A stretch of 64,000 nt of DNA. It comes from a virus. Lineage: Duplodnaviria; Caudoviricetes. The position numbers and the translations under genes are program-made. Every line of letters begins with the position of its first letter. The stretch's first letter is position 1. The DNA lies in the IMG/VR virus record IMGVR_UViG_3300032030_000028, positions 1 to 64,000 of that record; one strand, 5' to 3'. Below the pieces are notes generated by a model. That model was not told the origin of the DNA, made no database searches, and saw only the letters and a program-made list of their open reading frames with translations. Below, piece after piece: positions 3,078-54,183 of this stretch.

Positions 3078-3100
3078 AAGGTCCCAAAGGGGCCTTTTTT
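3076..3100. terminator. Bidirectional terminator
   Basis: AAAAGGTCCC-AAA-GGGGCCTTTT between convergent genes. Confidence 0.7.
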
Positions 3101-3446
3101 ATTGCTTAAGAATTTCTTCTATTGAAGTTTTATATGGTACCATGCGCTTTTTAATAGTATAGAACGATAACATATCTGCAGTGACCTTAAAGTCGTTTGG
3201 ATTCGTAATAGTATATATCTCCGTAAAATGTTCCCATCTAAACTTCGAAAATTTAGAATATATATCTCTTATCTGATTTCCGGTCAGTATAAACCACACG
3301 CCCCCTTCTTCCGTCTGACATCGATCGTATTTGTTCTTGCTAAGAAATTCAAATATTTCTCCTACCGACCATATGGCGTAATATCCGGAATTATTACCAG
3401 GTACACCTCCCCGTTTCCCTATTATAGATTCGCTGATGTGTTTCAT
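3099..3446 (-). CDS. ESIIGRKG-tag family protein
   Basis: Starts MKHISESIIGKRG. Confidence 0.8.
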   Translation of the reverse strand: MKHISESIIGKRGGVPGNNSGYYAIWSVGEIFEFLSKNKYDRCQTEEGGVWFILTGNQIRDIYSKFSKFRWEHFTEIYTITNPNDFKVTADMLSFYTIKKRMVPYKTSIEEILKQ

Positions 3447-3463
3447 TGTCTTAGAATTTTGTC

Positions 3464-3877
3464 TTAAATATTTATTCTACCACTACGTATTAAACTAAAA
3501 TCATCTGGATAATCGAGCAGTTCATAAGGATATTTTATATTGTGCTGAGATATAAATTTCAAAATAGTCTCATTATATCCGTTTGGTGTCCAATAAATAT
3601 CACAATCAATATGATTGGTATTTAATTGTAATTTTGAAAAATCTCGGCCAGGACCAGTAAATATTAACGCCCCTTTCCCATTATTTAATTCGCATTGGTT
3701 AATGAAATGTGTATTGGATATAGAAAGTATAGCATTATCAAGCAATTTAATATCCCATCTTGTATGCGGTATGATTACGTATATATTGTTTTTATCGGTA
3801 AAAATTTCTTGAAATTTGTCTTGTTTGGTCGGGATTGATCCTTTCCGTCCTATTATAGATTCTCTTATGTGCTTCAT
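3464..3877 (-). CDS. ESIIGRKG-tag family protein (paralog of 6444-6854)
   Basis: Starts MKHIRESIIGRKG; NIYVIIP/LIFTGPGRDF/DCDIY match NIFIVYP/VIFVGTGEDF/DCCIY. Confidence 0.8.
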   Translation of the reverse strand: MKHIRESIIGRKGSIPTKQDKFQEIFTDKNNIYVIIPHTRWDIKLLDNAILSISNTHFINQCELNNGKGALIFTGPGRDFSKLQLNTNHIDCDIYWTPNGYNETILKFISQHNIKYPYELLDYPDDFSLIRSGRINI

Positions 3878-4197
3878 TTTTCTTCTAATCTTTCTCTTAA
3901 TTTTTCTGGTGTGTATGTATCATAGAAAATATCAAAATTTTTATCAAAAATAGACTTCCAAAAATACATGCCATCTTTTGAGTCGGACCAAGGAAATGCA
4001 CAATCTAAACCGAATTTTTGCAGACTTTCTAAATCAAAATCTTTTCTAGTCAAATATGTTTCATACAATGCTAACGTGATAATCTCCAAAGGATATCCTT
4101 CTATTTTCCCTTTAGCATCTTTCTTGGTTAAACCATATGGATTTGGCCACACCAGCGCTCCTTTCCGTCCTATTATAGATTCATTTATGTGTTTCAT
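3874..4197 (-). CDS. ESIIGRKG-tag family protein
   Basis: Starts MKHINESIIGRKG. Confidence 0.8.
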   Translation of the reverse strand: MKHINESIIGRKGALVWPNPYGLTKKDAKGKIEGYPLEIITLALYETYLTRKDFDLESLQKFGLDCAFPWSDSKDGMYFWKSIFDKNFDIFYDTYTPEKLRERLEEK

Positions 4198-4649
4198 AAT
4201 CTGCTTATAGTTTCTTCGGTTAATATCTTAAATAATAGACCATTTTTTTGGCAGAATTCCATAGCCGCCGCCCACTTGCTCCGGTTCCGGATGTATTCCT
4301 TCCAGGCATATCCGTTAGGATCAAATGGAGTCTTCGGAGGTAGGGTCTGGTTCTTGGGCTTGATTTCTATCAGCACTTGGGATCCGTCATCCATAATCAC
4401 AAAAAAATCCGGATAATAACGATGAGATTCTCCGTCGAGTTTATTTATATATGGTATAGCTAGGCATTCCGATGCCCAGCTTTTTACTTTAGGGGTATTT
4501 TCTAGCCAATGTATGAATATCTTCTCATAAGAACTTCTATATATTATAGGTTCCCGAGATTGAGATTCTAAAAGTTTCTTGCAAGACCCCGGATTGATGT
4601 ATCCTTGTTGAAATCTCTTTTTGGATGGCCGGACTTGTTTGATATTCAT
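4194..4649 (-). CDS. Head completion nuclease (T4 gp4 / TnsA-like endonuclease)
   Basis: YRSSYE, WASE, IPY, RYYPDF, IEIKP, N..KWAAA motifs. Confidence 0.85.
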   Translation of the reverse strand: MNIKQVRPSKKRFQQGYINPGSCKKLLESQSREPIIYRSSYEKIFIHWLENTPKVKSWASECLAIPYINKLDGESHRYYPDFFVIMDDGSQVLIEIKPKNQTLPPKTPFDPNGYAWKEYIRNRSKWAAAMEFCQKNGLLFKILTEETISRL

Positions 4650-6187
4650 ATTCGATTACTGATAAATCTGAAACATTCGAAAAGATTCTTATAAATGTCA
4701 ATATTTACAGTTCCGATTCGCTTTACGATTTCAAAACGATCAGGACTGGTTGCGTAATTTTTGGCTTTTAGAGGAAGATTCGAGATCTTATTTACACCAT
4801 ATATTAACTTCATACTCTCGCAGAAAAATCTTGGTTTCCCCATACCATCTTCTTCCATCCACATTATGACATCTCCACCGATTCTTATAAGACTATTTAC
4901 ATATTCTTTTGCTGTATCTAATCCAGGCAGCTTTAATATCTCATCTATGTGATTTGCATATTCTTCTTGAGTCAAATACAAGACAGTATGGTCTTCTATT
5001 TTTGGATTACCCTGCGTATGATCCGATCTCATAAGATATATCGGGGATGTCGTCCCGCCTACACCTTTTCTTCCTATTATAGATTCGTTAATATATTCCG
5101 ATAGTCCCACATAAGATTCGTTTTTACGGGCGGTACGAAATTCGGATTTAGTAGCATATCCGACCTCTTTACCATTCCGAGTCCGGACATAAGTCATACC
5201 ATGTCCCGTTTTTTTCCGACGAGCATGGATTTCCGATCCGTCTTTAGCTTTAACTATCTGTTCCTTGGGTTCTTTGTTAGAAATATTATCCTTTTTTATG
5301 AGATTTCGATCAAACTCTAAAAATTCCGAGCCGTTTTTCTTTATATATTCTTTTCCGGTCTTTCTCAGATCTTTATCTTGCATAATTTTAGAAAAGTTCT
5401 TTTGAAAATCTTTATCGGAGACATCGGAAAAATCGGGATCGATCCGAATCTTACCTTTCTTGTTATACATAGATTTCATCAGATTCTCATAATTCTTTTC
5501 CAGCTCTTTTTTCTTTTTCGGATCTTTTTCTGCTTCTATAGAAGCCTTCATGCCGGCAATGGTAGCTTCGTTTCGTTTTCGCATGATATGGACGGTGGTA
5601 GCGGTAATAGCAGCGGCCGCAATAGCTACTCCGGCTATTATAGCGGTTTTTTTAGGACCATCGGAATCTAAATATCTACCCCATCCCGTCTTAACGGTAT
5701 AATCAAATGTCTGATGATATTCCGTACCGGTTGCCACAGTCTCAGCTTTCACTGGACCAAACCAGGCCCAATCATTATCCTGCTTAGAATAGGTATGGTA
5801 GACGTGGCGTCTTCTTTTCCATTCCGATCGGCTGAGTGGTTTGGATGATATTTTATCATATTCATTTTTTGATACCTTCTTAGTCCTGCCTTTACCCATA
5901 TCTATGGTATAGGTATCCTTGTGAGATTCGGCATCTTTCTTTTCTTTATCATATTCGGCTGCTTTGCGATCAGCTTCTTTCTGAGCCTCCTCATATTCTT
6001 TCCGCGTATCTTCTTCCCGTTTGGCTATAGCATTTCCGAGTTCCTCAACCGTCTTATATCTCTTTCCGGTCTCCCAATCGCAATACGGAAATTGCGACCG
6101 CTCGCTCACCGGGATTCGACGGTCCTCTACATGGCTGCTCAGACGGCGCCCTTCTAAATTCATTTCTAATATATTAGTCTTCATCAT
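4646..6187 (-). CDS. Putative internal-head polyprotein (hydrophobic segment + basic domain + internal ESIIGRKG tag)
   Basis: Paralogous to 52131-53687 and 54187-55317; internal EYINESIIGRKG at 5063-5098. Confidence 0.75.
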   Translation of the reverse strand: MMKTNILEMNLEGRRLSSHVEDRRIPVSERSQFPYCDWETGKRYKTVEELGNAIAKREEDTRKEYEEAQKEADRKAAEYDKEKKDAESHKDTYTIDMGKGRTKKVSKNEYDKISSKPLSRSEWKRRRHVYHTYSKQDNDWAWFGPVKAETVATGTEYHQTFDYTVKTGWGRYLDSDGPKKTAIIAGVAIAAAAITATTVHIMRKRNEATIAGMKASIEAEKDPKKKKELEKNYENLMKSMYNKKGKIRIDPDFSDVSDKDFQKNFSKIMQDKDLRKTGKEYIKKNGSEFLEFDRNLIKKDNISNKEPKEQIVKAKDGSEIHARRKKTGHGMTYVRTRNGKEVGYATKSEFRTARKNESYVGLSEYINESIIGRKGVGGTTSPIYLMRSDHTQGNPKIEDHTVLYLTQEEYANHIDEILKLPGLDTAKEYVNSLIRIGGDVIMWMEEDGMGKPRFFCESMKLIYGVNKISNLPLKAKNYATSPDRFEIVKRIGTVNIDIYKNLFECFRFISNRI

Positions 6188-6440
6188 CTTTGTCGGATAT
6201 TTTTTCTAGATGGGATTCCGTTTTCTTTAAAGTTTCTTTACATAGTTCTATCAGATTATTCAGATCCGTCTTAGACCAATGACTGTCTTTAAGCTTGTCT
6301 TTTACAAATTCCTCAATATCATCGCCCCCGTCACTATAAAATCCTTCTATTAAAGAACTTACTATCAATATTAATTGATCTTTTTCTTTTTCCGGAATAT
6401 CCATTTTGGTTTCAAATATAAAATTTTTTATATTTTTCAT
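6174..6440 (-). CDS. Acidic helical protein homologous to N-terminus of 52131-53687
   Basis: FYSDGGDDIEEFVKD..W..IELCK vs FYNDDEDRDIEEFIKD..W..IDICK; starts MKNIKNFIFE. Confidence 0.75.
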   Translation of the reverse strand: MKNIKNFIFETKMDIPEKEKDQLILIVSSLIEGFYSDGGDDIEEFVKDKLKDSHWSKTDLNNLIELCKETLKKTESHLEKISDKDDED

Positions 6441-6443
6441 ATT

Positions 6444-6854
6444 TTAGAATTTTATTTTCCCATCATATACATTGTCGATTATATCAGAATATTTAAGAAC
6501 ATCGGACATGTATTCTATATGATAATCCAACCATGTTATGACATCTCCGATTTTATGGGGAAATATAGAATATATACAACAATCTACCTCTTGATTTATA
6601 TGAACCTTTTTAAAATCCTCTCCGGTCCCCACGAATATTACTTCCCCACCAGACAGATATACCTCCTCTATGTTTACATTTTTCACATCCATTATAGTAT
6701 TTGATATTTCGTCATAATCTTCATTATTAACTGGATATACTATAAATATGTTTTTAGGATTCCGATATATGGCTTTAGCAAATGCATTATCCTTATCCGG
6801 AATATTATAATTTCCTCTCCGTCCTATTATAGATTCATTAATGTGTTTCATCAT
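6444..6854 (-). CDS. ESIIGRKG-tag family protein
   Basis: Start re-called at MMKHINESIIGRRG. Confidence 0.8.
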   Translation of the reverse strand: MMKHINESIIGRRGNYNIPDKDNAFAKAIYRNPKNIFIVYPVNNEDYDEISNTIMDVKNVNIEEVYLSGGEVIFVGTGEDFKKVHINQEVDCCIYSIFPHKIGDVITWLDYHIEYMSDVLKYSDIIDNVYDGKIKF

Positions 6855-6861: not shown

Positions 6862-7287
6862 TTATTTATAACTCCAAATTTCCTGACCTGTTGTTCCAAC
6901 AGAAGCCATTTTTAGAATTTCGATATCAGTCTGTATGTTTTTTATATTTTTACGATCAAAAATGTCGGATATATGACTTTTGACATATTCCGGATCCGCC
7001 CGCCAGATGCTCACCACATCTAAATCGTATCCCCGACCAGCTTCATTGCTGAATTCTAAATTATTGTCATATTCATAATCCGGAATATATCCTGATCCGA
7101 GTAAAACAAATTTACTATAGATGTCGAATTTATTATCAGCATATTTCTTTCTGATTTTTTTATCAAAAACCACTATCCAGAACTCTCTATTCGCAGTTTG
7201 AACGATATCAAAATCCTTTAATAACGATTTCGGATTTGAAAATGATGCGCCCTTTCTTCCAATTATAGATTCATTAATGTGTTTCAT
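6862..7287 (-). CDS. ESIIGRKG-tag family protein
   Basis: Start re-called at MKHINESIIGRKG. Confidence 0.8.
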   Translation of the reverse strand: MKHINESIIGRKGASFSNPKSLLKDFDIVQTANREFWIVVFDKKIRKKYADNKFDIYSKFVLLGSGYIPDYEYDNNLEFSNEAGRGYDLDVVSIWRADPEYVKSHISDIFDRKNIKNIQTDIEILKMASVGTTGQEIWSYK

Positions 7288-7291: not shown

Positions 7292-7720
7292 TTACTTTTT
7301 ATATAGATAAAATGTTCTTCCGGCCATATTAACAAAAATTATATCGGCTTCCATTGGTTTGCAAATAGGTGCCTCTCCAAATTCTTCAATTTGAAATGCA
7401 CCGCATATATATTTTTGTTGTCCTATTTTTTCATAAAGTTCATCAAGATCATTCCAAATTTGCATCAGAAAATTTCTATCTTTAATATAACCTTCATAAT
7501 CATTGACATTCACCGGTCCAAAATCTAACAAACAAGATGCAAATTCATTAAAATCTAATTTTTGCTCAATTTTTTCTAACCACTTATCAAATTTATCAAA
7601 ATTATTATACAAACCCTTTGATTTAAGTTTCTTATCATCGAATATGAGTTCCGATATGAAATATTTATTTGGCGGATAATTTCCCTTCCTTCCTATAATA
7701 GATTCAGTAATGTGTTTCAT
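7292..7720 (-). CDS. ESIIGRKG-tag family protein
   Basis: Starts MKHITESIIGRKG. Confidence 0.8.
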   Translation of the reverse strand: MKHITESIIGRKGNYPPNKYFISELIFDDKKLKSKGLYNNFDKFDKWLEKIEQKLDFNEFASCLLDFGPVNVNDYEGYIKDRNFLMQIWNDLDELYEKIGQQKYICGAFQIEEFGEAPICKPMEADIIFVNMAGRTFYLYKK

Positions 7721-8921: not shown

Positions 8922-10775
8922 TTAGAATCCAAATTTATTTCTATATACACCATGCAGCTGATTCAGGGCGGCAAATGTGCCGGTAAGCTTCATGACTTTT
9001 CCTTTATAAGTGAATACCACGCCTTCGGCGGCACTCAGATTCTTATCTCCAATTCTTTTGATCTGAACCAGTGTCTTATTAATAGCATCTGGATCGTCGC
9101 TATCCATTATGGCGGTCCAGGCATGCAACATATCTTTTCTTAGCACATCCGTCACATAGCGCTCGCAGTTGGCATTGATAAATCCATCGCATATCTTCAT
9201 AAAGTCTATACCTATGCCCATGAATAACTCATCAAGCGGTTCCATGACTTTTTGGACATATTCCTTTCCCGGTCCCTTAAGTTCTTCATAATGATCCGGA
9301 TATACTTTCTTCAATTCGGTAACTCTAACGGTTTTGTCATCATTGAACCATCTGTTGAAGATCACATCCGTCATCTCGGTCATCCATTGGGGTTTGACTT
9401 CTTCAAATTTTTTCTTCTTCCATTCTTCTAGTGTTGCATTAAGATCTAAATCTAAATCTTTATATAGTTTTTTAATACCATCAATATACTTTTTCTTATA
9501 GCTTTCCGTATCCTCCATAGTTTTGATGATAATGTCTGGGCGCGGAGCTACCTGACTAGCATATACCCCGTGATTCACAATATCATATATGTCGTCTACA
9601 TGCCCTTCTACTTTCTTATATTCTTCCCAACCCTTTTCTCCTCTCTTATAGATCACATATCCATGGAAAGCTACCATATCGCTAGCATATATCATTACAT
9701 TGGTCTTGCCGGAAGTGATGCATTCGCAGTTGATAACCTTTCGGGTATCCGGTCTTGGATTGAAATATCGGGTTCCTAACTGTGAAAATATGCCTCGGAT
9801 AATCTCTCCAGCCTTTATGAATACATCCCGGACTCTCGGATTCATAGCCCATTTGTTAGCCATATCTCCGATAGTCATACCACCTTGTTCGGAATTCAGG
9901 TCGGACTTATTGCGGATAAACACTACCTCGCCATCTTCATTCATAGTAGCATAGATATTGGTACCGTCTAGTTTCTCCTTGACATGTTCCAGTTTACCGG
10001 AGAATAGGGTTCCGACAAGATTGCAGAGTTCCTTGCCTGTAAGTTCCGTGTAATCATAGGGGTGTGCCATATGTCCGGCGGCTCCGCCTTCTAAGATCAT
10101 ATTCAAGTAACCTCTCAGGCTCCGGGATTCTTTCACTCCTCCTTCCAGATCTCTCAAGAACCTTCCGAAAGCATCACAGAACTCTCCGAACATACCTCCG
10201 GTGCCTTTGGGCATCATCTTCTCGAATGAGGATTGATTTTTCTCTAATATAGATTTTCGGACTAGTGATCCGCTTACTCCGGAGCTCCGCCCATTGCCTA
10301 TATTAGGCTCTAGTTTGCCTTCCAGATCCGGAAAGCTCTTGATAAGAGTCTTGTATTTCTCTACCCGGTCGTCTCCACACATCAAATATTGTGGTTCATA
10401 TTCGCCTTCCTTGACTTTGTTATTGAAGTCTTCTATGGCCTCATAGGCATTTTTGACATAGATAATATCTATTATATCTTTCTTATAGTTCCGCTTGACT
10501 ATATCTAATTCTTTTTCAATAAGTTCGTTGGAAAAAGGTCGTTTCAGGATTTCTTTTTCTCTCTCGGTGAGATCTCCTTTGCCGGTCCTAGCAAATTCCG
10601 ATACTCTTTCTAGTTCTTGCTTGGATATTTTTTTACCTTTGATCTTAGAAGGATCCCGATCCGATGAATTGATTCTATATATAATACAAGGCAATTCCCC
10701 TTCCAATATCATATTGAGATGGCCTTGAGTAAACGGCTGAAATCTACCTATAGTTATATTGACTTTCTTTGACAT
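8922..10775 (-). CDS. Cytidylyltransferase-like domain fused to ligase-like nucleotidyltransferase domain
   Basis: GRFQPFTQGH, CGDDR, SGSLVRK in N-terminal half; GHMAHPYD, EKLDG, EGVVF, KLTG in C-terminal half. Confidence 0.7.
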   Translation of the reverse strand: MSKKVNITIGRFQPFTQGHLNMILEGELPCIIYRINSSDRDPSKIKGKKISKQELERVSEFARTGKGDLTEREKEILKRPFSNELIEKELDIVKRNYKKDIIDIIYVKNAYEAIEDFNNKVKEGEYEPQYLMCGDDRVEKYKTLIKSFPDLEGKLEPNIGNGRSSGVSGSLVRKSILEKNQSSFEKMMPKGTGGMFGEFCDAFGRFLRDLEGGVKESRSLRGYLNMILEGGAAGHMAHPYDYTELTGKELCNLVGTLFSGKLEHVKEKLDGTNIYATMNEDGEVVFIRNKSDLNSEQGGMTIGDMANKWAMNPRVRDVFIKAGEIIRGIFSQLGTRYFNPRPDTRKVINCECITSGKTNVMIYASDMVAFHGYVIYKRGEKGWEEYKKVEGHVDDIYDIVNHGVYASQVAPRPDIIIKTMEDTESYKKKYIDGIKKLYKDLDLDLNATLEEWKKKKFEEVKPQWMTEMTDVIFNRWFNDDKTVRVTELKKVYPDHYEELKGPGKEYVQKVMEPLDELFMGIGIDFMKICDGFINANCERYVTDVLRKDMLHAWTAIMDSDDPDAINKTLVQIKRIGDKNLSAAEGVVFTYKGKVMKLTGTFAALNQLHGVYRNKFGF

Positions 10776-10790: not shown

Positions 10791-11147
10791 TTATACCTTC
10801 CCGGTTTTAATAATTCTTTCTAATTCGTTTTGTGTATATGTGGGGAACTTCAAATATATATCAGGTAGTTGTGAGGTTTTGAATATCTTGATCACATCAT
10901 TGTCCCGGTCAAATGAACATTTCAGATTATCATCGAAATGCGCTATATCACACAAATATCTGTCTTCATAAAATCCTGTGCGCATCTCTCCATCCTGGTC
11001 AAAATCAGCAATTAGGAATATTTTATAATCTCCACTCCTCCACAATACTATATCTCCCTCTTCAAGATTCTCTTTCCGGGGTAGAGCTTGAGAGACCCCG
11101 ATAATGCCTTTCCGGCCTATTATAGATTCGGTTATTGATTTCATCAA
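10791..11147 (-). CDS. ESIIGRKG-tag family protein
   Basis: Starts MMKSITESIIGRKG; body resembles 6862-7287 (DIV..., DNL...DV..I). Confidence 0.8.
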   Translation of the reverse strand: MMKSITESIIGRKGIIGVSQALPRKENLEEGDIVLWRSGDYKIFLIADFDQDGEMRTGFYEDRYLCDIAHFDDNLKCSFDRDNDVIKIFKTSQLPDIYLKFPTYTQNELERIIKTGKV

Positions 11148-20985: not shown

Positions 20986-21012
20986 AAAACGTTAAATTAA
21001 ATTTTATAAAAA

Positions 21013-22878: not shown

Positions 22879-23268
22879 ATGAAAACACTGCAAGAATCCA
22901 TAATTGGAAGAAAGGGATCTTATCGAAAAATAAAAATATCTGATCTAAAACCCGGTGATGTATTAAAAATTGAAGGCGATTATCACCCGTATGAATATTT
23001 CTTATTAATATCAGGAGATGACTATTATAAATTATTCAAAGACAGATCCGCAGATTTGGTCATAGTGATGGATTCTAGCGGGGGGTGGTTTACTCCGTTA
23101 TGGGACGAGCATTTTAAAAATACAGATAAGGATTTCCTAGAAAATGGGGATATCCTCGAAATATTTCCGGATGCATTGGATGAAAGAAAAAGAAGGGCTA
23201 AAAAATTTTATAGCTCGGTAGAATTGGAAATCATGTGCATGAATCTTCCATCAATAAAAGTAAATTAA
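22879..23268 (+). CDS. ESIIGRKG-tag family protein (paralog of 24468-24875)
   Basis: MKTLQESIIGRKG; KISDLKPGDVLKI and LLISGDDYYKLFK shared. Confidence 0.85.
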   Translation: MKTLQESIIGRKGSYRKIKISDLKPGDVLKIEGDYHPYEYFLLISGDDYYKLFKDRSADLVIVMDSSGGWFTPLWDEHFKNTDKDFLENGDILEIFPDALDERKRRAKKFYSSVELEIMCMNLPSIKVN

Positions 23269-23269: not shown

Positions 23270-23707
23270 ATGAAAACGCTATCTGAAGCTATAGTAGGTC
23301 GAACGGCAAAATTTACACCGGGTTATAATAAATATTTTAAAATACCCGGAAAATTAGAATGGCACTTTGAAAGCCGGGATAATGATTTTACTGGAGATCT
23401 GAATTTGACCTCCGAAAAATGGCTGGCTTTTTATAGTAATGAAGTTATATTATTCTGGGCTCCCGATGTAGAATGGTATCCGTTTTTCTTCATAGAAGAA
23501 TATAAAAAACTCAAAGATCGTGCTTGGTTGCTGACGGGTCCGGCTGATTTTGATCATGACTATAAAGACCCGGAATTTATATATAACGATCTGGTATCAT
23601 ATATGGACGCACAACTCCAATACATTCCGCTGATTTCCGACATGAGCAAGGTGGATATTCCGAAAAAAGCTATTGACGCTATTGAAAGAATTCTTAGAAG
23701 AACATAA
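23270..23707 (+). CDS. ESIIGRKG-tag family protein, variant tag (paralog of 24877-25299)
   Basis: MKTLSEAIVGRT; IPGK, W.P...YP.F shared. Confidence 0.8.
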   Translation: MKTLSEAIVGRTAKFTPGYNKYFKIPGKLEWHFESRDNDFTGDLNLTSEKWLAFYSNEVILFWAPDVEWYPFFFIEEYKKLKDRAWLLTGPADFDHDYKDPEFIYNDLVSYMDAQLQYIPLISDMSKVDIPKKAIDAIERILRRT

Positions 23708-23717: not shown

Positions 23718-24044
23718 ATGAAAACGTTAACAGAATCTATAATAGGGAGAAAAAATACTCAATCTCGGTCAATCTGGTATAATAAAGAACCCAAATTATC
23801 CCGAGATGAAATAATCGGAGATATTGAAGATTGTATAGGCAATGTCCGCGACAATAATAATTATCTGCGTGGATTGAAGGATCCGGAGGTTAATTATGCC
23901 GAATACGTTGCAGGTGTTCTAAATATTGCAGCCAGATGCAAAGATAAGAAAATATCCGATATAGCTAAAAAATACTTACATAATTCTCCCGATGAAGGAC
24001 TTTTTGATGGGGTAATCGCCATATCGCAATTACTAGGAATTTAA
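23718..24044 (+). CDS. ESIIGRKG-tag family protein
   Basis: Start re-called at MKTLTESIIGRKN. Confidence 0.8.
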   Translation: MKTLTESIIGRKNTQSRSIWYNKEPKLSRDEIIGDIEDCIGNVRDNNNYLRGLKDPEVNYAEYVAGVLNIAARCKDKKISDIAKKYLHNSPDEGLFDGVIAISQLLGI

Positions 24045-24057: not shown

Positions 24058-24471
24058 ATGAAACACATTCAAGAATCTATAATAGGAAGCAAAGGAACTC
24101 CTCTACAGGATTGGCATACCGGGGATCTTGTGTATATGAACATCAATGGCCCCAATAGGCCCGGACACCTGGAATATGTTTGGGTGTATTTGGATAAATT
24201 TGAAGCTAAAAGACGGATAAATGAATTCGAAACAAATAACAAATTGCGAGGGTATATTCTATCCGGAAAATCCGTATTTGTACAGCCCAGCAATACCGCA
24301 ATCCAGAATGCCCACGGGCGCAGTGTCCGGTGCGATTATGAATATGTTGGGCAGGATTCGGAAAAATTTTTATCCAATTTTGCACAGGAACTGATCAGGA
24401 TGGATCGGCTGAATTTGGATCCTAAAAAAACCATACTAGAAAATTTAGAAGAAAACAATTACGGACTATGA
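24058..24471 (+). CDS. ESIIGRKG-tag family protein
   Basis: MKHIQESIIGSKG. Confidence 0.8.
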   Translation: MKHIQESIIGSKGTPLQDWHTGDLVYMNINGPNRPGHLEYVWVYLDKFEAKRRINEFETNNKLRGYILSGKSVFVQPSNTAIQNAHGRSVRCDYEYVGQDSEKFLSNFAQELIRMDRLNLDPKKTILENLEENNYGL

Positions 24472-24875
24472 AGACATTACAAGAATCTATAATAGGAAGG
24501 AAGGGATCTTATCAAAAAATGAAAATCTCTGATTTAAAACCCGGAGATGTGCTGAAGATTAAAAGTGATTATGATGGTTCACGTGAATATGATTATCTTT
24601 TATTAATATCCGGTGATGATTATTATAAATTATTCAAACGAAATTACGCCGATTTAGTTATAATAGTAGATCCTTATAGTGGTCGTATTACCCCGAGTGA
24701 AATTTGGGATGATCAGTTTAAAAATAAACGCAAACCATATTATCTCGAGCACGGAGATATTATAGAGATATACCCTCAAGTTTTAAATGAAAAAGAAAGA
24801 AGATCTAAGAAATTTTATAGTGCCAAAGAACTAGAAAGAATATGTTGGGGCCTTCCATCAATAAAAGTAAATTAA
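24468..24875 (+). CDS. ESIIGRKG-tag family protein
   Basis: MKTLQESIIGRKG. Confidence 0.85.
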   Translation: MKTLQESIIGRKGSYQKMKISDLKPGDVLKIKSDYDGSREYDYLLLISGDDYYKLFKRNYADLVIIVDPYSGRITPSEIWDDQFKNKRKPYYLEHGDIIEIYPQVLNEKERRSKKFYSAKELERICWGLPSIKVN

Positions 24876-24876: not shown

Positions 24877-25299
24877 ATGAAGACATTACAAGAATCTATA
24901 ATAGGAAAAAAGGGATCGAAAAGCAAATTTCTCCATATTCCTGGCAAGATAATGCTTAAATATGAAAAGGATGACGGCAGCTGGGACGGTAAGGATTATT
25001 GCGATGGGTGGTATGTGTTCATCAATCCCGAAGAACAAATATTATTATTGTGGTCTCCGGAAGCGACATATTATCCATATTTTTACTATGATACTAGATC
25101 TAGTTGGGATCAAATAAAAACAGAAACTTGGGATTTATTAGAGGGAGTACCTGATATAAAAACACCGGAAGATATGTATGATTTTATGACGGATGTAGAT
25201 AAATGGAATGAGGTTACTGTATATGCCACTATTTTTAATGTTTATATAGATATACCAGGTAATGTTATACGAGATATTCGTAGATATACCGGATTATAA
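24877..25299 (+). CDS. ESIIGRKG-tag family protein
   Basis: MKTLQESIIGKKG. Confidence 0.8.
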   Translation: MKTLQESIIGKKGSKSKFLHIPGKIMLKYEKDDGSWDGKDYCDGWYVFINPEEQILLLWSPEATYYPYFYYDTRSSWDQIKTETWDLLEGVPDIKTPEDMYDFMTDVDKWNEVTVYATIFNVYIDIPGNVIRDIRRYTGL

Positions 25300-36038: not shown

Positions 36039-36055
36039 CAAAATTAAGAATTATT

Positions 36056-36340: not shown

Positions 36341-36386
36341 CCTTTCCGGAAATCGATTATATAAAATCATAAAAGAAATAATCGTT

Positions 36387-36551
36387 ATGAAAGAATACAG
36401 AACTGAAGATAACGGATATCAAGAAAATGCGGAACTCCGCAAAGATACTGATGAGTATGGCAACTGGCTTCCGGAACGCGACAAATCTGGGTATATGGAG
36501 AACGCCGCCCCGTGGGATAGGCCCGATACCTGGGAAGATATGGGAAGATAA
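36387..36551 (+). CDS. 54-aa acidic hypothetical protein (absent from ORF track)
   Basis: MKEYRTEDNGY...WEDMGR directly after promoter motif 36337-36363. Confidence 0.6.
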   Translation: MKEYRTEDNGYQENAELRKDTDEYGNWLPERDKSGYMENAAPWDRPDTWEDMGR

Positions 36552-36606
36552 CTGTAAAAGAAGATAATTAAAATTTATAATAGTTAACATTAAAAATCGC
36601 AAAGAA

Positions 36607-36954
36607 ATGAAAGAAACTAAGTATTATGTAAATCCGGAAAAGAAAACGGTGGTCTGTGTCATCACCATCCAAGACGATTATTTTGGAGAAATTCATCGTT
36701 TTGAAGGCAAAGCCAAATGTTCCCCAGAAGATGATTTTGATGAAAATGTCGGTCGAGAGATTGCCCAAAATAGAGCATTCATCAAAATGAAGACACATTT
36801 TCTCAATCTGAAGAAATCCGCTCGTCTGGGTATTGCGAATCGAATTAAGGATCTTACGAAGTATGGTACGAGAATAGACGCTGGCATTCTCAGGAACGAA
36901 GGTGAAATCAAGACCGCCAAAGCTCGCATCCGCGAACTCGGAACTTCTAAATAA
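36607..36954 (+). CDS. Hypothetical phage protein
   Basis: GKAKCSPED.FDE..G..IA segment, coiled C-terminus; followed by hairpin 36983-37004. Confidence 0.75.
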   Translation: MKETKYYVNPEKKTVVCVITIQDDYFGEIHRFEGKAKCSPEDDFDENVGREIAQNRAFIKMKTHFLNLKKSARLGIANRIKDLTKYGTRIDAGILRNEGEIKTAKARIRELGTSK

Positions 36955-37016
36955 TTTTTTCCATAATATATCTCTTTTATAGAAGGTCTCTCCAGAGACC
37001 TTTTATTTTTTATAAT

Positions 37017-37259
37017 ATGAAGATACAAGACAATGGTACATATACCGGAAATTATTACGTATGGGAACGCAAATTGCACCAGCCATATGATTATGAACAT
37101 AATGGATTAGTCAATCGGATTTTGTCTCATAAGATCCATGACACTTCGAATCCGTTTTTGAAATATATGGTAGATGTTTATGAAAGGTCCTTAGTATATT
37201 GCATGAAATATATCGATATGTTGGCTAATTTCATTAACTATAACAAATGGAATAGATAG
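37017..37259 (+). CDS. Hypothetical protein
   Basis: 80-aa ORF after TATTTTTTATA motif; TAG stop. Confidence 0.6.
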   Translation: MKIQDNGTYTGNYYVWERKLHQPYDYEHNGLVNRILSHKIHDTSNPFLKYMVDVYERSLVYCMKYIDMLANFINYNKWNR

Positions 37260-37314
37260 CCTGGATCTGTTTATTATAATTTTGCGTTTTTTGCAGGATT
37301 TGCTGTGATTTAAC

Positions 37315-37365
37315 AAGCGATCTCTTCGAGAATGATATAACTATTCATTTAAGAAGAGATCGCTT
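37315..37365. repeat. Dispersed 51-bp inverted-repeat element, copy 3
   Basis: AAGCGATC-N35-GATCGCTT between convergent genes. Confidence 0.85.
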
Positions 37366-37383
37366 GAATTTGATATGGTTTTG

Positions 37384-48276: not shown

Positions 48277-48361
48277 AATGTTATGTTTTCTTTTTTATAT
48301 TTCGGATTATATCAGTGGCAATCCGAATTATTATATAAATAATCAAATATCAGTTGAAACA

Positions 48362-49078
48362 ATGAAGAAGCTGACACAATATCTTAAAAATGTAAATGAA
48401 GCATTTGGGGATGAATTGAATGAAATTACCGGATGGCTAGGTTCACTAGAAAACCTATCCGATGTCTTGGATAGACTCGAAAATTCAAAAATTCTCGGCG
48501 GACGGGGTAACGATAGATTTGGAAGGGGAGATGGTGAGAATATTGATGATCATACAAAAAGGTATGTGGGAATGATTCTCAAAAAACTTATGACGGATCC
48601 CGAGATTATATCCTGGTATGATTCTCCATATAACAACGAGATGGAGCTTTATAGTTTGCTAGCTAAAAAGCTTTCTCCCAGAGAAATGACTTATCTGGAA
48701 GAGATCACTCAGGTTTTATCTTCCGTAGAAGACTCGGATAAAGATGCAGAGATAGTTAATAATGCCGTTGTCCGCCTCATAGATGATCCAGATTTAGAAA
48801 GATGGTTTAAAAAATATTCAAAACCTATTAAGAAAACGGATAGGTTCGGTAATGTCGAAACTACAACGGCAACTCCTAATGAATTTGAACTCAGAAAGAT
48901 TATTAACAGCAAACTTTCAGGCACGGAAAGAAAATTTTCCGAGCCCATTGCGCGAAAATTTATGCGAATATATAGTGGTGAATATGATACCGATGACTAT
49001 TTTAATGGAGATAGAGGCAGTTCAGGAATGGGTATGTCTATGACCGGAAGACGGAGCGGCGGACGTTTTAGAATTTAA
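48362..49078 (+). CDS. Hypothetical protein with CTS-like N-terminus
   Basis: Start re-called at MKKLTQYLKNVNEA; internal repeat DP....W......NE.EL...(KLS..E). Confidence 0.7.
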   Translation: MKKLTQYLKNVNEAFGDELNEITGWLGSLENLSDVLDRLENSKILGGRGNDRFGRGDGENIDDHTKRYVGMILKKLMTDPEIISWYDSPYNNEMELYSLLAKKLSPREMTYLEEITQVLSSVEDSDKDAEIVNNAVVRLIDDPDLERWFKKYSKPIKKTDRFGNVETTTATPNEFELRKIINSKLSGTERKFSEPIARKFMRIYSGEYDTDDYFNGDRGSSGMGMSMTGRRSGGRFRI

Positions 49079-49098
49079 TTAAAAATTAATCAAGATAT

Positions 49099-51603
49099 AT
49101 GAAAAGATTTCATGAATATACAGGGATGATCACGGAATCCCTAATGATGTTATTAGTCTATTCCGCTATAGTAGCTACCATGGTCCAGGATGCCAAACAA
49201 GAACGTCTCAAGTTCAAGATAGAGCAAAAACGAATGGAAAAAGAGCTTAAAGAAATGGAAGATAGGGAGGATGATGAAGAAGTCCAACGTAGGATAGAAA
49301 AAGAACGTCATAAACAAGAACTAGCTCAGGCGAGACATGAACGTCAAGAAGAGAAAATGAAACGGAGAATGGCTAAAATACAGATGCTCCAGGATAAAAT
49401 AGCGGAATCTCGTGAGAAAAAATTAGAAACTCAGCGTTTTGCATTAGCAGCCCATAATATGATGAACGACAAGGAGACCGCTGAAGACCGGAGTCTTATC
49501 GAGAAACATGCTAAGAACAAAGAAAAATGCTCTCCTGATCAAATTCGCAGGGCTACTGAAAAAGCTGATAAAATATCCGACGAAGAAGCAGATAAGTATA
49601 TAGCTAAATACATGCCGAAAAAAGAACTCCCTAAGACCGAACCCGGGCCTAAAAAAGAAACTCCGAAGAAAACGGATAAGATCCCAAATCCTGGAGACTT
49701 CAAGATGCCTAAAAAACCGGATACTGACGGGGCTGTAGATAAAAAATCAGAACCTAAAGAAGAAGAAGTAATCAATCCGGAAACTGGCAAGAAAGAAAAA
49801 CATAAAGTATATACAGGTAAACGCGGTGGTAGATATTGGATGTCTAAAAACAACAATAAAGTATATGTTAATGAAGATAAAGAAGAACAAGAAGAAGCTT
49901 CTCGTTGGGATATTACTAATTCTAGACTAGCTTATCTGCAATGGGTTATAGATAACACTAAAGATAAAGAAAAATCCAATAAGCTTCAGGAGATGTATAA
50001 TGCCTTGTATAATATAACATATGATACGGGCGGCGATATCCGGAGCTTAGATGATACTATATCTTATATTACTCAGACCATGCAAAACAATAAAGGTCTG
50101 ATTCCGGGACTTCCTTCTAATGATCAGATAGAAGAAATCGATAAAAAAGCAGCTAGCTTTGAAGAATTGCACCCGGAAGAATATGAAAGTTATATCAAGA
50201 GACTGGAAAGTTCTAATCTGGATAAATCCAAGAAAGATAAAGAAGATCAAGCGGATAGTGTGCTGAGTCCGGCGGACACCAAAGATGATAAAGATGCCCG
50301 CAATAAGCTAGCTACTCTTACTTCCATATTTGGATTTACTAATATTATAGGTCTAGAACCTAATCGGAAGCCATCCGCGGAAGATATGAAGAAAAAATCC
50401 GAGCTGAAAAAAGATCAGAAAGATAATGCATTGCTCCAGGATACCGAGGATGACGAAACTGCTCTTAAAAAACCGGAGATCTCCGGTGAAGAAAGCTCCG
50501 ATGAGTCCGGTGAAGAAGGCTCCGATGAGTCCGGTGAAGAAGGCTCCGATGAGTCCGGTGAAGAGTTGTCGGATATTGAAGAGGATATGATCATGTATGT
50601 AGTCATGATGGCTGAAGAATATTTGGACCAGTTCGAAGGCGAAGACTATGACGAAGCTGATGTGGACAAATGGTTGGATGAACAGGATTTGGAATCCGAT
50701 CTTGGCCTGGAAACCGAAGAAGAGAAAAAAGGCTTCCGGGATGCTATGAAGCAAGAAATTAAGAATGAACTAGAATCCGAGTCCGATGAAGGTAGTGAAG
50801 AGTCCGGTGAACAGACTACGGAATCTCTCTTAGAGTTCTCTCAAAACTTTATATTTGAATTGTTTGGTCGGAATGACGCTTTCAAGGCGGCTAAGAAAAA
50901 TGCTGAAATGTTCAATAAGTATGGTGATGGTGCATATAAACCGGAAGTTACAGTAAAAGAACTCCAAAAGGCACGTAAGAAAAATGCAAGCGCCGTTAAG
51001 TTCAACAAGGCGGCAAATTTGCTTACCGGACCACTGGGTGCCGCCATTATCAACAAAAAACAAGATAATATGAAGAAACGTATGGCCGGAATGAAGTCCA
51101 TGATTGATAGCACGCAGGATCCCGATGAAAAAGAGAAACTTCAAAAGAATTACGATATGATGATGAAGGCTTGTGTTACCAAGAAAGGAAGATTCCGCGC
51201 CCGTCCGAAACTTAAAAGCCTTTCTCCGGAAGAAAGGGCCGAATTTAAATCTAAGTACAAAGAAATCAAGCAATCTAAAACAATCCGACAAGCTGGCAAG
51301 GATTATATGATCAAACACGAAGATTTTGCAGACCAAGTACTACAAGATAAAGTATCTAAGAAAAAAGAAGAAAAAGAAATCAAGAAAGGTAATGTTGAAA
51401 AGACTTCCATGGATGACGGATCTACTCTGGTAGCTCGGAAATCGGAAAGAGACGGCCATATGATTTATACTAGAGAAAAAGGAGGCAAGACTATTGAATA
51501 TATGGATAAAGACGACTATCAAAAACGTCTAGCTAGCAAGAAAGAATCTGTAGAACATCACTTCAGTTCTTTCAAATCCTTGCTAGAATCTAAAAATGCA
51601 TAA
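49099..51603 (+). CDS. Putative internal-head polyprotein (coiled coil, basic adaptor-like motif, acidic repeat, family C-terminal domain)
   Basis: TGKRGGRYW...NNKVYV motif; C-terminal third homologous to 52131 and 54187 genes. Confidence 0.7.
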   Translation: MKRFHEYTGMITESLMMLLVYSAIVATMVQDAKQERLKFKIEQKRMEKELKEMEDREDDEEVQRRIEKERHKQELAQARHERQEEKMKRRMAKIQMLQDKIAESREKKLETQRFALAAHNMMNDKETAEDRSLIEKHAKNKEKCSPDQIRRATEKADKISDEEADKYIAKYMPKKELPKTEPGPKKETPKKTDKIPNPGDFKMPKKPDTDGAVDKKSEPKEEEVINPETGKKEKHKVYTGKRGGRYWMSKNNNKVYVNEDKEEQEEASRWDITNSRLAYLQWVIDNTKDKEKSNKLQEMYNALYNITYDTGGDIRSLDDTISYITQTMQNNKGLIPGLPSNDQIEEIDKKAASFEELHPEEYESYIKRLESSNLDKSKKDKEDQADSVLSPADTKDDKDARNKLATLTSIFGFTNIIGLEPNRKPSAEDMKKKSELKKDQKDNALLQDTEDDETALKKPEISGEESSDESGEEGSDESGEEGSDESGEELSDIEEDMIMYVVMMAEEYLDQFEGEDYDEADVDKWLDEQDLESDLGLETEEEKKGFRDAMKQEIKNELESESDEGSEESGEQTTESLLEFSQNFIFELFGRNDAFKAAKKNAEMFNKYGDGAYKPEVTVKELQKARKKNASAVKFNKAANLLTGPLGAAIINKKQDNMKKRMAGMKSMIDSTQDPDEKEKLQKNYDMMMKACVTKKGRFRARPKLKSLSPEERAEFKSKYKEIKQSKTIRQAGKDYMIKHEDFADQVLQDKVSKKKEEKEIKKGNVEKTSMDDGSTLVARKSERDGHMIYTREKGGKTIEYMDKDDYQKRLASKKESVEHHFSSFKSLLESKNA
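50482..50564 (+). repeat. Coding tandem repeat, 24 bp x ~3.5 (SGEEGSDE)
   Basis: TCCGGTGAAGAAGGCTCCGATGAG units. Confidence 0.9.
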
Positions 51604-51628: not shown

Positions 51629-51685
51629 AATCGGACTCGAAAGGGTCCGATTTTTTTATTATTTATTCAAAGGTGATTTTATATG
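51629..51685 (+). repeat. Terminator + putative late promoter/start module, repeated at 52075-52133 and 53710-53766
   Basis: AATCGGACTC-RAAA-GRGTCCGATTTTTTT then TATTNTTTAT..CAAA...GATTTT(T)ATATG. Confidence 0.8.
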
Positions 51686-52069
51686 AAACATATTAGTGAA
51701 TCCATAAGGAATGTAAAATGCTACGTTAACGAAGATACCGTAACTCATGATAAAAGATCGCAATCTTTCCAATACGGTGACGGAAGCCTTGTCTATTTTG
51801 ATGAGATTTTAACATATCCCCAATATCACGACAATGCTCTGGAAATCGAGACTCTGCATGCCGTAACTAAAAGAAGAGGTATTGGTTCGAAACTGATAGA
51901 AGCTATCAAGGATTATGCTGATTCCGAAAGAAAATCAATAGTGGTATATGCTAGTCCGCTGACAAACGACATATCTGAAAGAGACCTTATCAAATTCTAT
52001 AAAAAGAATGGATTTATACAAGATCCGGATACCGACAATCCACATTGTTTGATTTATATCGGAAGATAA
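51683..52069 (+). CDS. GNAT acetyltransferase with MKHISES tag
   Basis: RRGIGSKLIE acetyl-CoA motif and FYKKNGF. Confidence 0.8.
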   Translation: MKHISESIRNVKCYVNEDTVTHDKRSQSFQYGDGSLVYFDEILTYPQYHDNALEIETLHAVTKRRGIGSKLIEAIKDYADSERKSIVVYASPLTNDISERDLIKFYKKNGFIQDPDTDNPHCLIYIGR

Positions 52070-52130
52070 TTCAAAATCGGACTCGAAAGGGTCCGATTTT
52101 TTTTATTTTTTATACAAATAAGATTTTTAT

Positions 52131-53687
52131 ATGAAAAATATTGGAAGTTATATTCAAGAATCCCAAATGTTTGAGGCAGAAAAAGAAAATTTAAAGTTAT
52201 CTAAAGAAGACCAAAAACAACTACAAGAGATTCTTCAAAGAGCTATTACTGCATTTTATAATGATGATGAAGATAGAGATATAGAAGAATTTATTAAAGA
52301 TACATTTGCTGATTATGGATGGTCCGATAAGCTCATGTCTGGATTCATAGACATATGTAAGCAGATTGTGGACAAGTCTGATAAATATGTTGAAAAATTG
52401 AGTAAAACAGATAAAGATGTTAATGAAAGTTTGGGTGATTTAATTGCCGAAAAAGATGGGGAGGGCTTAAAAAAGGCAATTGATGCAGTTGATAGTGGCT
52501 TGGGAAAACTTGTGGATGCCGGTGTATTCGGAGATAATGCTAAAAATAAGCGAGCTGTTAATAAAGCACTTGGCAATACAGCGGCCGATAAAGCTAAAAA
52601 AGGTGTTGACAATGTGGTTTCAACAAAAACTGCGGTAGAAGATGCTCATAAAGCAGAAGTAAAACGTAACGCTGAGATGGCTAATAATATCGGGCGGGAT
52701 GGCAAATTCCACCAAGATTTGGTAACCGGAAAATATTACAAATCCGAAGAAGAACTTAATCGAGCTGTTGGGAGAAGAAAAATGGAGGAATTTGATAAAG
52801 AATATGAAGAAGCTGTTAAAAAAGAAACCGATATAAAGAAAAATAACCAGGACACATATCAAATTCAAACATCACCAGGTAAATGGAAAGATGTATCTAA
52901 AGAAGAGTATGAAAAGGCTAAAAAAGAAAATCCCAGAACAGCTAAAAAGACGGAACGTTCTTCCATAGATCCTCATGAGTATAAAATACCAACTTCTAGA
53001 GACACCAAATATGGATATGAAAAGGATGGGGAAATAACCCATACACACCTTCAACGTCATTATGAAATGGAAACTCCGTGGTGTCGTTTCTTGACTTCCG
53101 GAGGTCCTCAGAAGGTAGCGTTAGGTGCAGCTATCGTGGGTGCCGTGGCTCTCACTACGGCCGTTGCGGTACATACTGCCAGAAAGCAAAATGAAAAATT
53201 CTTAGCAGGCCTCAAAGCCCGCTCCGAACAAGCTGACGACCCCAGAATTCGCAAGGAATATGAAAAATACTATCAAGATGCATTAAAGGCTATGTATAAG
53301 GATAATGGCAAGGTTAGAATGGATCCGGATTTTTCTAAAATCCCCGAAGAGAGTAGAAAGTCATTCGTTAAAATTTACGGTTCCGGCAAAGATCTTCGCA
53401 AAATGGGCAAAGAATATATTAAGAAAAACGGTTCCGAATTTTTAGAATATGATAGAGACCATACTGCTTCTTCTACTAAAAAAGAACCTAAAGAACAAGT
53501 AGCTAAAGCTAAAGACGGATCCGAAATCCATGCTCGCCGCAAGAAATCCGGACACGGTATGACCTATGTGCGTACTAAAAACGGCAAAGAAGTCGGATAT
53601 GCCACTAAGGACGATTTCCGGCGCGCTAGACAAAATGAAGGCATGATTTCATTGAGAGATGCTTTGTTAGAATCTTTTGAAATCTAA
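52131..53687 (+). CDS. Putative internal-head polyprotein, paralog of 4646-6187
   Basis: Shared LRK.GKEYIKKNGSEFLE.DR and KAKDGSEIHARRKK.GHGMTYVRT.NGKEVGYATK. Confidence 0.8.
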   Translation: MKNIGSYIQESQMFEAEKENLKLSKEDQKQLQEILQRAITAFYNDDEDRDIEEFIKDTFADYGWSDKLMSGFIDICKQIVDKSDKYVEKLSKTDKDVNESLGDLIAEKDGEGLKKAIDAVDSGLGKLVDAGVFGDNAKNKRAVNKALGNTAADKAKKGVDNVVSTKTAVEDAHKAEVKRNAEMANNIGRDGKFHQDLVTGKYYKSEEELNRAVGRRKMEEFDKEYEEAVKKETDIKKNNQDTYQIQTSPGKWKDVSKEEYEKAKKENPRTAKKTERSSIDPHEYKIPTSRDTKYGYEKDGEITHTHLQRHYEMETPWCRFLTSGGPQKVALGAAIVGAVALTTAVAVHTARKQNEKFLAGLKARSEQADDPRIRKEYEKYYQDALKAMYKDNGKVRMDPDFSKIPEESRKSFVKIYGSGKDLRKMGKEYIKKNGSEFLEYDRDHTASSTKKEPKEQVAKAKDGSEIHARRKKSGHGMTYVRTKNGKEVGYATKDDFRRARQNEGMISLRDALLESFEI

Positions 53688-53763
53688 AAGTTCTTAAAAA
53701 ATCCATAAGAATCGGACTCAAAAGAGTCCGATTTTTTTATTCTTTATTCAAAGAAGATTTTAT

Positions 53764-54183
53764 ATGAAACATATTAGTGAATCTATAATAGGAAGAAGGG
53801 GATCTTCAAATATTTCCGACTTCCGTTTTGAAAGCATAGTCCGAGGAAGTATAGTATATATTCCCGAACTCAAGCGAAACGATTCCGATAATCCTTATTT
53901 TTTGTGTGTAACTATCCGAGATTTATATGATTTGTGGCCGGATAGATACATAGATAGTAATTTACTTAGTTTAATTCATTATATTCTGCCTTCTAAATAT
54001 AGTGTATATGACACTCCAATCGGAGAGGTAACCCTTCAAGGATATAAAAATCATTTTCCATTTTATGACGGTAATAAAATACCCATAAAAGCTATATACG
54101 GACCTATAGATCGGCATAAGTTAAACAGAATACTATCCTCAGAAGACACATTAATAGATTTTTTAAAAAATTTACACCCCTAA
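53764..54183 (+). CDS. ESIIGRKG-tag family protein
   Basis: MKHISESIIGRRG. Confidence 0.8.
   Translation: MKHISESIIGRRGSSNISDFRFESIVRGSIVYIPELKRNDSDNPYFLCVTIRDLYDLWPDRYIDSNLLSLIHYILPSKYSVYDTPIGEVTLQGYKNHFPFYDGNKIPIKAIYGPIDRHKLNRILSSEDTLIDFLKNLHP

Follow-up and report, generated by a model that had tools for sequence, protein, structure and literature searches.

Why should a large share of the small genes of one phage begin with the same 13 residues? The question is raised by IMG/VR virus record IMGVR_UViG_3300032030_000028 (Duplodnaviria; Caudoviricetes), a viral contig of 110,371 bp (G000; CheckV completeness 49%) whose first 64 kb constitute the window analysed here. Open reading frames (ORFs) in this window carry the N-terminal leader M-K-(H/T/S)-(I/L)-x-E-S-I-I-G-(R/K)-(R/K)-G, as determined by a six-frame scan and codon listings. 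We propose, with moderate confidence and largely by analogy, that this leader is a lineage-specific form of the capsid-targeting and prohead-protease propeptide of T4-type phages. Its DNA has in addition been a site of gene exchange between related phages.

The core peptide (I/L)-x-E-S-I-I-G-(R/K)-(R/K) occurs 13 times in the window, 12 times just behind M-K-x at an ORF start and once internally, as YINESIIGRKG at ~5092-5060 on the minus strand. Two further ORFs have degenerate leaders, at 23270 (MKTLSEAIVGRTA) and 24058 (…IIGSKG), bringing the total to 14 leader ORFs plus the internal copy and a partial copy at the start of 51683 (MKHISESIRNVK). These are the numbers given by an earlier sequence-only reading of the window, and they were borne out. 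However, the coordinates it assigned to the minus-strand genes (3099, 3464, 3874, 6444, 6862, 7292 and 10791) give the lower end of each ORF and not its start; the leader ATGs lie at the high coordinates 3446, 3877, 4197, 6851, 7287, 7720 and 11144. On the plus strand, the non-degenerate leaders start at 22879, 23718, 24468, 24877 and 53764.

Extending the motif search to the full contig and its relatives showed that the tag is real and commoner than had been claimed. The whole contig contains 33 leader-like starts by peptide pattern and 30 sites matching the E-S-I-I-G coding pattern GARTCNATHATHGG. Its three closest relatives, IMG/VR contigs of 130.5, 115 and 55 kb from one metagenome, contain 39, 21 and 22 such sites, respectively (39 in G001 and 22 in G002). 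The reversed control of the pattern had 0 occurrences, and the leader is thus present far beyond chance. Leaders start about one quarter of the phage's genes, mostly those for small proteins without known function. Note that the single match outside these contigs, LIESIIGRKG in the GC-rich IMG/VR contig L025, is internal to an unrelated coiled-coil ORF and was taken as chance.

Is the leader maintained as a peptide or as DNA? Position 4 is Ile or Leu only, specified by six codons (ATA, ATT, ATC, TTA, TTG and CTG), position 5 is free and E6 is invariant. Lys2 is encoded by AAA and AAG in genome-wide proportions, all four Gly codons occur at positions 10 and 13, and Arg and Lys exchange at positions 11-12, with Arg11 encoded by both AGR and CGR and no Arg by CGY. 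In contrast, codons 6-9 are frozen (n = 82): GAA at 81/82, TCT at 77/82 (0.30 expected) and ATA at 80/82 and 78/82 (0.42 expected), the expected silent-site frequencies being taken from codon usage. Silent sites beside these codons vary at codon-usage frequencies. The exact 14-mer GAATCTATAATAGG, consisting of codons 6-9 plus GG, is found at 93 of the 112 ESIIG-coding sites of the four contigs (~4% expected). It does not occur outside leaders, and no conserved sequence was detected upstream of the ATG or past +40. The possibility that the tag is conserved only as DNA, raised in the sequence-only reading, therefore applies to the central 14 nucleotides with their frozen silent sites and fails for the flanks, which are kept as amino acids across codon families. 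We conclude that the leader is a protein element with a separate nucleic-acid constraint superimposed on its middle.

Selection for recombination proficiency, frequent short-tract gene conversion and an RNA-level operator are possible reasons for the frozen core. A promoter reading, suggested by the TATAAT contained in the 14-mer, was rejected: the 14-mer is never found outside leaders, and TATAAATA upstream of genes is without pattern. Alternatively, the element may be mainly nucleic acid, with the peptide as a by-product. In the mRNA, the 14-mer GAAUCUAUAAUAGG occupies +15 to +28 (A of AUG = 0) and could be an operator for a translational repressor or site-specific RNase (RegA/RegB-like) acting over the whole gene set, or, as DNA, the site of a dedicated recombinase. 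The near invariance of the silent sites of codons 6-9 between freely varying neighbours, the excess of the exact 14-mer and its confinement to leaders, the absence of CGY codons for Arg and the homology-block junctions at the leaders described below are in line with this explanation. It does not account for flanks whose residues are maintained although the codon families change (Ile and Leu from ATH, TTR or CTG; Arg from AGR or CGR; K/R exchange), nor for sister lineages in which similarly designed leaders vary freely at silent sites (Ser from both AGY and TCN codons) or have another peptide. Moreover, other codons specify the I/L-x-E-S found in longer leaders and at C-termini, and there is no conservation upstream of the ATG. 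We consider a purely nucleic-acid role unlikely.

The leader DNA is also the place where related phages diverge. The relative G003 is syntenic with G000 (portals 97% identical). In the plus-strand array, homology between the two contigs ends at 22915, the end of the first plus-strand leader, with the body behind it replaced, and returns precisely at the third leader's 14-mer (23733). A second interruption lies between 24508 and 24876, where the cassette 24509-24875 is absent from G003, an indel between two leaders. In the minus-strand arrays, homology blocks start at 4160, the body-side edge of the leader of gene 3874-4197, at 3446, and at 6805, ~8 nucleotides from the body-side leader edge (6813) of gene 6444-6851. 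Similarly, 8 of the 9 block ends between G001 and G002 in their capsid-proximal array fall +13 to +27 nucleotides from the first base of the 14-mer. Cassette shuffling by way of the shared DNA tag, as anticipated from the sequence, is thus visible in homology blocks that begin or end at leaders, and it is well supported that related phages swapped cargo genes at leader DNA. The frozen 14-mer and the position of the block ends together indicate that the leader serves both as protein and as recombination junction.

This arrangement is reminiscent of the promoter-early stem-loops (PeSLs) of the T4-type phages RB49 and phi1, short repeats bordering ORFan genes that act as homology patches, relatives differing by insertion, deletion or replacement of cassettes bounded by the repeat (PMC2839356). 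However, PeSLs are intergenic, ~100 bp long and equipped with promoter and terminator (PMC2839356), whereas the repeat described here is the first 39 nucleotides of the coding sequence and carries a protein signal, not a promoter. Exchange would therefore be an in-frame swap of the body behind a constant leader. The phage recombination system would insert, delete and swap cargo cassettes in frame at the 39-nucleotide leader DNA with its 14-mer, and any incoming body would automatically be tagged. A further-reaching version of this model regards the leader as an in-frame cassette site, a coding analogue of integron attC, in which selection or a dedicated DNA- or RNA-binding factor preserves the 14-mer and captured ORFs are joined in frame to a capsid-loading signal; dozens of proteins would be injected, and the lineage-specific mature N-terminus (SIIGRKG) would be a second signal for docking or ejection. 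We regard this combination as doubtful.

What kind of proteins follow the leader? The 93 leader proteins of the four contigs fall into 42 BLAST clusters. An iterative hidden Markov model search joined 40 of the 93 bodies into one family (family A) with the motifs GD(I/V)… and D(I/V)(I/M)x(I/V)YR, represented in the window by 10791, 22879, 24468 and 6862. In profile-profile comparison (hhalign), probabilities were 94-96% within family A and <3% when family A was set against 14 other groups; these 14 groups, compared with one another in all 91 pairs, gave <2%. The description of the bodies as mostly unrelated thus holds for at least 14 other groups without profile similarity, but not for family A with its 40 of 93 members, nor for 23270 and 24877, which are paralogs. 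AlphaFold modelled family A as a small beta barrel (predicted local distance difference test, pLDDT, 64) and a second group, group B, as an alpha/beta fold (pLDDT 79.5), with the leader disordered in both. No convincing fold match was obtained with Foldseek against the PDB (both models) or VIA-align wide (better model; best Z 5.2). Searches of individual bodies against Pfam and PHROGs and of all 93 leader proteins against Pfam and PADLOC gave no match, the ESM Atlas gave no usable match, and no relative of a family-A body was found among GenBank phages. Note that at 99073-99478(-) of G000 (L019:15073-15478) a leader start, MKPLQESIIGKK…, is out of frame with a family-A body (99073-99405), reflecting either a frameshifted or decaying cassette or an assembly error.

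These data bear on the view that the leader is no signal at all, but the best-conserved part of a single fast-evolving paralog family spread by tandem duplication. Such an origin would agree with the large size of family A, the similar lengths of the leader proteins (100-150 residues) and their tandem arrays. Against it stand at least 14 other groups whose hhalign probabilities, to family A as well as among themselves, are <3%, the different folds modelled for two groups, family-A homologs elsewhere that are leaderless or have other leaders, and the replacement of bodies behind a retained leader at junctions; furthermore, partial and internal copies of the leader exist. We consider this explanation highly improbable.

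The separability of leader and body is evident from a family-A profile search of 1.8 billion representative proteins, which returned 179 relatives. Among the best 150 of these, 84 have the SIIG leader, 15 have other leaders of the same design (MKHLKEGLIKQRG, MKSLKEALVHKH… and MKxIxEYLFSKK) and 51 are leaderless, starting at the domain. Metagenome contigs of one sister lineage contain tandem arrays of MKHLxEGLIKQRG genes. In these contigs (L106-L113, with the prefixes Ga0265299_ and Ga0310696_), the codon for the Leu following Gly is invariably CTT (17/17) and other silent sites vary. Arrays of MKSLxE-SLFD genes occur in relatives whose portals are 62-69% identical, with AGT, AGC, TCA, TCG and TCT as the Ser codons; the use of both AGY and TCN indicates that the constraint there is at the protein level. 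The same relatives also carry many proteins with leaders of T4 design, including MKSLAEYISE-A, MKHLHEFIVE-S, MKTLVEYIKE-A and MKLFTEIIAE-S (the last hyphen marking the predicted cut here and below). No relatives with variant leaders were found in IMG/VR. Thus, every lineage has its own uniform leader form over many bodies.

Longer leaders of this kind are present in G000 itself. Among its genes without the tag, 12 of 78 have [IL]xE[SAGT] within the first 12 residues, compared with 2.1 expected (p = 1e-6), for example MKNIGSYIQE-S, MNLKNYILE-S and MKLFTEQILE-S. The last of these heads a 462-residue protein at 101649-103037(-) (L019:17649-19037) with sub-threshold Pfam similarity to sigma-70 regions 2 and 4 (E~1e-3), which may be a packaged sigma-like factor. 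Four large paralogs in the window (4646-6187, 49099-51603, 52131-53687 and 54187-55317) each have a hydrophobic segment and have in common the C-terminal domain …KDGSEIHARRKK.GHGMTYVR..NGKEVGYATK…. Three of the four have long leaders, and three end in I/L-x-E-S (LLE-SFEI, LLE-SKNA and YINE-SVE). Enrichment of I/L-x-E-S at C-termini alone was not detected (4 observed, 1.9 expected, p = 0.12), and 3 of the 4 occurrences are in paralogs. In the fourth paralog (4646-6187), an in-frame fusion adds a body of the size usual for leader genes, the junction being precisely YINE-SIIGRKG, the internal copy of the leader mentioned above, which keeps the frozen 14-mer at 5073-5086. Cleavage at this junction, if it happens, would release both parts with native ends. 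The four paralogs are candidates for processed internal or ejection proteins.

We next consider whether the phage has the head genes that a T4-type loading pathway would employ. G000 encodes a gp20-type portal (PF07230, E = 1.7e-67, 228 bits), a gp4-type gene, a large terminase and a GH108 endolysin. The leader-bearing sister contigs G001 and G002 encode a gp23 capsid protein (PF07068, 73 bits) and an S77 gp21-type prohead protease, both above the Pfam cut-off, and T4-type head context is thus present. The sister protease aligns to T4 gp21 (PDB 5JBL) over segments with the query residues …GELEHP… and …SSRATG…; the gp23-type capsid protein had no match among PDB sequences. We infer an S77-type protease in the genome of G000 as well. 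In G001, the S77 domain (L023:1426-2841, corresponding to G001 36102-37517) is followed by a repeat-rich, scaffold-like tail with 5 tandem EKWIVEEYSPE(I/V) repeats, and is possibly a protease-scaffold fusion. Among GenBank portals, the nearest belong to an uncultured huge phage (40%), Sphingomonas phage PAU (36%) and Prevotella Lak phages (~35%), and this portal comparison revealed no cultured relative. The sequence upstream of start codons is A-rich without a Shine-Dalgarno motif, which we take to be compatible with a Bacteroidota host.

The leader genes are located among these head genes. In G001, 8 of them are arranged head to tail (47684-51163) immediately upstream of the capsid gene at 51280, and 2 others (35054-35973) lie immediately upstream of the protease-scaffold gene at 36102, a position held by the prohead core genes 67 and 68 in the T4 map. 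In G000, leader genes are found behind the portal, on both sides of gp4 and beside baseplate- and terminase-proximal genes. As the sequence-only reading had noticed, a head-completion gene interrupts one array: the gp4-type gene (4194..4649, minus strand; phrog_218, E = 2e-40) lies inside the array of leader genes. This placement argues, circumstantially, for co-expression with head genes, which scaffold-mediated loading requires; the leader genes would be transcribed together with them. Note that the 5' half of a gene downstream of the G000 portal is duplicated (94220-94789 and 95318-96148; L019:10220-10789 and 11318-12148), the two copies following different leader genes, 93679 (MKSLTESIIGRR…) and 94862 (MKSLTESIKNIK…).

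How does the leader compare with the capsid-targeting sequence (CTS) of T4? The IPIII CTS of T4 is reportedly MKTYQEFIAE, an assignment credited to Mullaney and Black in 1996; a text search located this string in print in 10.1101/2021.01.19.427310 (PMC8442874). T4 gp21 cleaves C-terminal to Glu behind a short motif (PMC9026906, PMC5694885). For packaging, the N-terminal 10 residues of IPIII are enough, and a variant that cannot be cleaved is packaged as well; within the CTS, residues 4 and 7 are important for targeting, and residues 8 and 10 are required for processing (PMC9026906). Between 20 and 200 fusion proteins can be loaded per T4 head, and Alt and gp21 also lose C-terminal pieces (PMC9026906). 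The internal proteins of T-even phages are diverse, with the CTS as their sole common part (PMC3012670).

The present leader resembles the T4 system (IPI, IPII and IPIII, and the Alt and gp24 propeptides) in several respects. It is a short M-K-x-(hydrophobic)-x-E leader with an (I/L)-x-E motif, and it is common to otherwise unrelated small proteins, here of at least 15 body groups without profile similarity. The lineage has a gp20 portal and, on the sister contigs, a gp23 capsid protein and gp21-type S77 protease, and the cargo of both systems is encoded by diverse ORFans, which differ from one related phage to another (PMC3012670, PMC9026906). The giant phages phiKZ, 201phi2-1 and SPN3US are comparable in having many (~50) head proteins, a gp21-related protease whose three-residue motif ends in the Glu after which it cuts, and ejected proteins in abundance (PMC5694885, PMC9026906). 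They differ in that the motif is S/A-x-E or A-x-E, that propeptides often exceed 100 residues and that no common leader is distributed over dozens of small ORFans. By this comparison, the leader would attach its small protein to the scaffolding core while the prohead assembles. A gp21-type (S77) protease would then trim it after Glu6 of (I/L)-x-E, leaving an N-terminal SIIGRKG, or the leader would remain uncut. The cargo would stay in the capsid with the DNA and enter the host at infection. Docking, cleavage, packaging, ejection and any effector role are here inferred from the genes and from T4.

The capsid-targeting signal put forward by the sequence-only reading is supported by context, namely T4-type head genes, the adjacency of leader genes to them, T4-like leaders in relatives and the fit of I/L-x-E to the gp21 motif. 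Several observations weigh against it. On G000, a contig 49% complete, no gene was found for a gp23 capsid protein or for an S77 protease, and no nucleotide overlap was found between G000 and the retrieved loci of G001 and G002. The predicted pro-piece has 6 residues, compared with 10-20 in T4 (PMC5694885), and I/L-x-E occupies residues 4-6, with Gly at position 10 where T4 has the cleaved Glu. IPII and IPIII of T4 are basic, in contrast to the mixed predicted isoelectric points of the mature forms here (4.6-9.4), and no body resembles a known anti-defence protein in the Pfam and PADLOC searches of the 93 leader proteins. Protein function alone does not account for the frozen 14 nucleotides. 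Finally, G000 and G001 may be complementary halves of one genome type, in which case each genome would have ~60-70 leader genes with many unrelated body families; no CTS system has a precedent for ~60-70 cargo species in one capsid.

Beyond these points, the leader departs from the T4 CTS in scale, with ~30 genes per half genome as opposed to 3-4, in the conservation of the 7 residues behind the predicted cut (SIIGRKG), and in the silent-site-frozen core of its DNA. It is notable that the system sets itself apart by the combination of scale, short pro-piece with conserved mature end, lineage-specific leader forms and a codon-frozen recombination core. The part behind the cut had been taken for a second signal, which is speculative. 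Because it differs by lineage (SIIGRKG, GLIKQRG, SLFD and ALVHKH), the sequences suggest lineage-specific docking to a co-evolving partner rather than a universal ejection or DNA-binding signal. Considering the 6-residue pro-piece, the 7 conserved residues behind it and Gly10, the whole 13-mer may be the docking signal, with cleavage internal or absent.

The lineage-specific forms would also fit a partner other than the capsid. The leader might be a tag that is recognized or cleaved by the phage protease, or by some other shared partner such as a chaperone, degradation adaptor or host target, without capsid loading, cleavage timing the activation or removal of intracellular host-takeover proteins. 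The motif suits a protease site, the leader is short and disordered in the models, its lineage-specific forms imply co-evolution with one partner, and the bodies are of mixed charge without a structural-protein signature. However, S77 proteases act inside proheads and T4-type leaders are capsid-targeting by experiment (PMC9026906), and the leader genes reside within head-gene clusters beside capsid, protease and portal genes. We judge such a partner tag rather improbable. Capsid loading is the best available reading and a coherent one, resting on context and analogy, and in our estimate it is somewhat favoured. The parts of the sequence-only reading that concern an injected arsenal and anti-defence functions are unsupported.

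The arrays in the window are organized as follows. On the minus strand, the first leader gene (3099..3446; 115 residues, MKHISESIIGKRG) has a body without relatives among the other groups. It is followed by 3464..3877 (137 residues, MKHIRESIIGRKG; group C, paralog of 6444-6851) and 3874..4197 (107 residues, MKHINESIIGRKG; group D), next to the gp4-type gene. The 513-residue membrane-segment paralog fused to a leader-type body (4646..6187; junction …LSEYINE-SIIGRKG… at ~5101-5060) precedes an 88-residue ORF with a longer T4-like leader, MKNIKNFIFE-T (6174..6440). Leader genes then follow at 6444..6851 (135 residues, MKHINESIIGRRG; group C), 6862..7287 (141 residues, MKHINESIIGRKG; family A) and 7292..7720 (142 residues, MKHITESIIGRKG; group G). 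The gene at 10791..11144 (117 residues, MKSITESIIGRKG; family A) is the one modelled as a small beta barrel with a disordered leader.

The plus-strand array comprises 22879..23268 (129 residues, MKTLQESIIGRKG; family A), the degenerate 23270..23707 (145 residues; group B), 23718..24044 (108 residues, MKTLTESIIGRKN; group F), 24058..24471 (137 residues, MKHIQESIIGSKG; group E), 24468..24875 (135 residues; family A, paralog of 22879) and 24877..25299 (140 residues, MKTLQESIIGKKG), the group B protein with the alpha/beta model. Further along the same strand are an 834-residue paralog (49099..51603; long leader …GMITE-S, C-terminal LLE-SKNA), whose C-terminal domain is common with 52131-53687, 54187-55317 and 4646-6187, and the ORF with the partial leader (51683..52069), which has a weak GNAT-like body (Acetyltransf_7, 26.1 bits, cut-off 27). 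They are followed by a 518-residue paralog (52131..53687; T4-like leader MKNIGSYIQE-S, C-terminal LLE-SFEI), a leader gene with a singleton body (53764..54183; 139 residues, MKHISESIIGRRG) and a 376-residue paralog (54187..55317; leader MNLKNYILE-S, C-terminal …GLSDYINE-SVE).

Other genes of the window were recorded alongside. A 7-deazaguanine (preQ0-type) set surrounds the plus-strand leader array (20350-27800), consisting of a PTPS/QueD-like gene (20350-20985), QueC (21990-22736), a radical-SAM/4Fe-4S gene (26114-26599) and GTP cyclohydrolase FolE2 (26649-27800); it probably serves base modification of DNA or tRNA. A homolog of translation initiation factor IF-1 is encoded at 25837-26064 (PF01176, E = 9e-27). 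ARAGORN located 24 tRNA genes at 28281-36039, including one with a CTA anticodon (amber suppressor; labelled 'Pyl') at 29340-29409, so that read-through of TAG in some genes is possible, and a doubtful permuted tmRNA at 35544-35965. An RtcB RNA ligase (1743-3077; PF01139, E = 1e-58) may form an RNA-repair set with a 617-residue ORF (8922-10775, minus strand), which by eye has a nucleotidyltransferase-like N-terminus and a KxDG ligase-like motif, with no match in Pfam.

If the leader proteins are packaged, they would be by far the largest known set of capsid-delivered proteins under one short signal. They would provide a catalogue of candidate effectors for host takeover or anti-defence in the first minute of infection by uncultured gut or rumen-type phages, and foreign proteins could be loaded into phage heads with the leader as a minimal natural tag. 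The different leader forms of the lineages represent a natural experiment on the co-evolution of the signal with scaffold or protease. A protein signal combined with a frozen recombination patch offers a testable mechanism by which phages may diversify injected arsenals with targeting kept intact.

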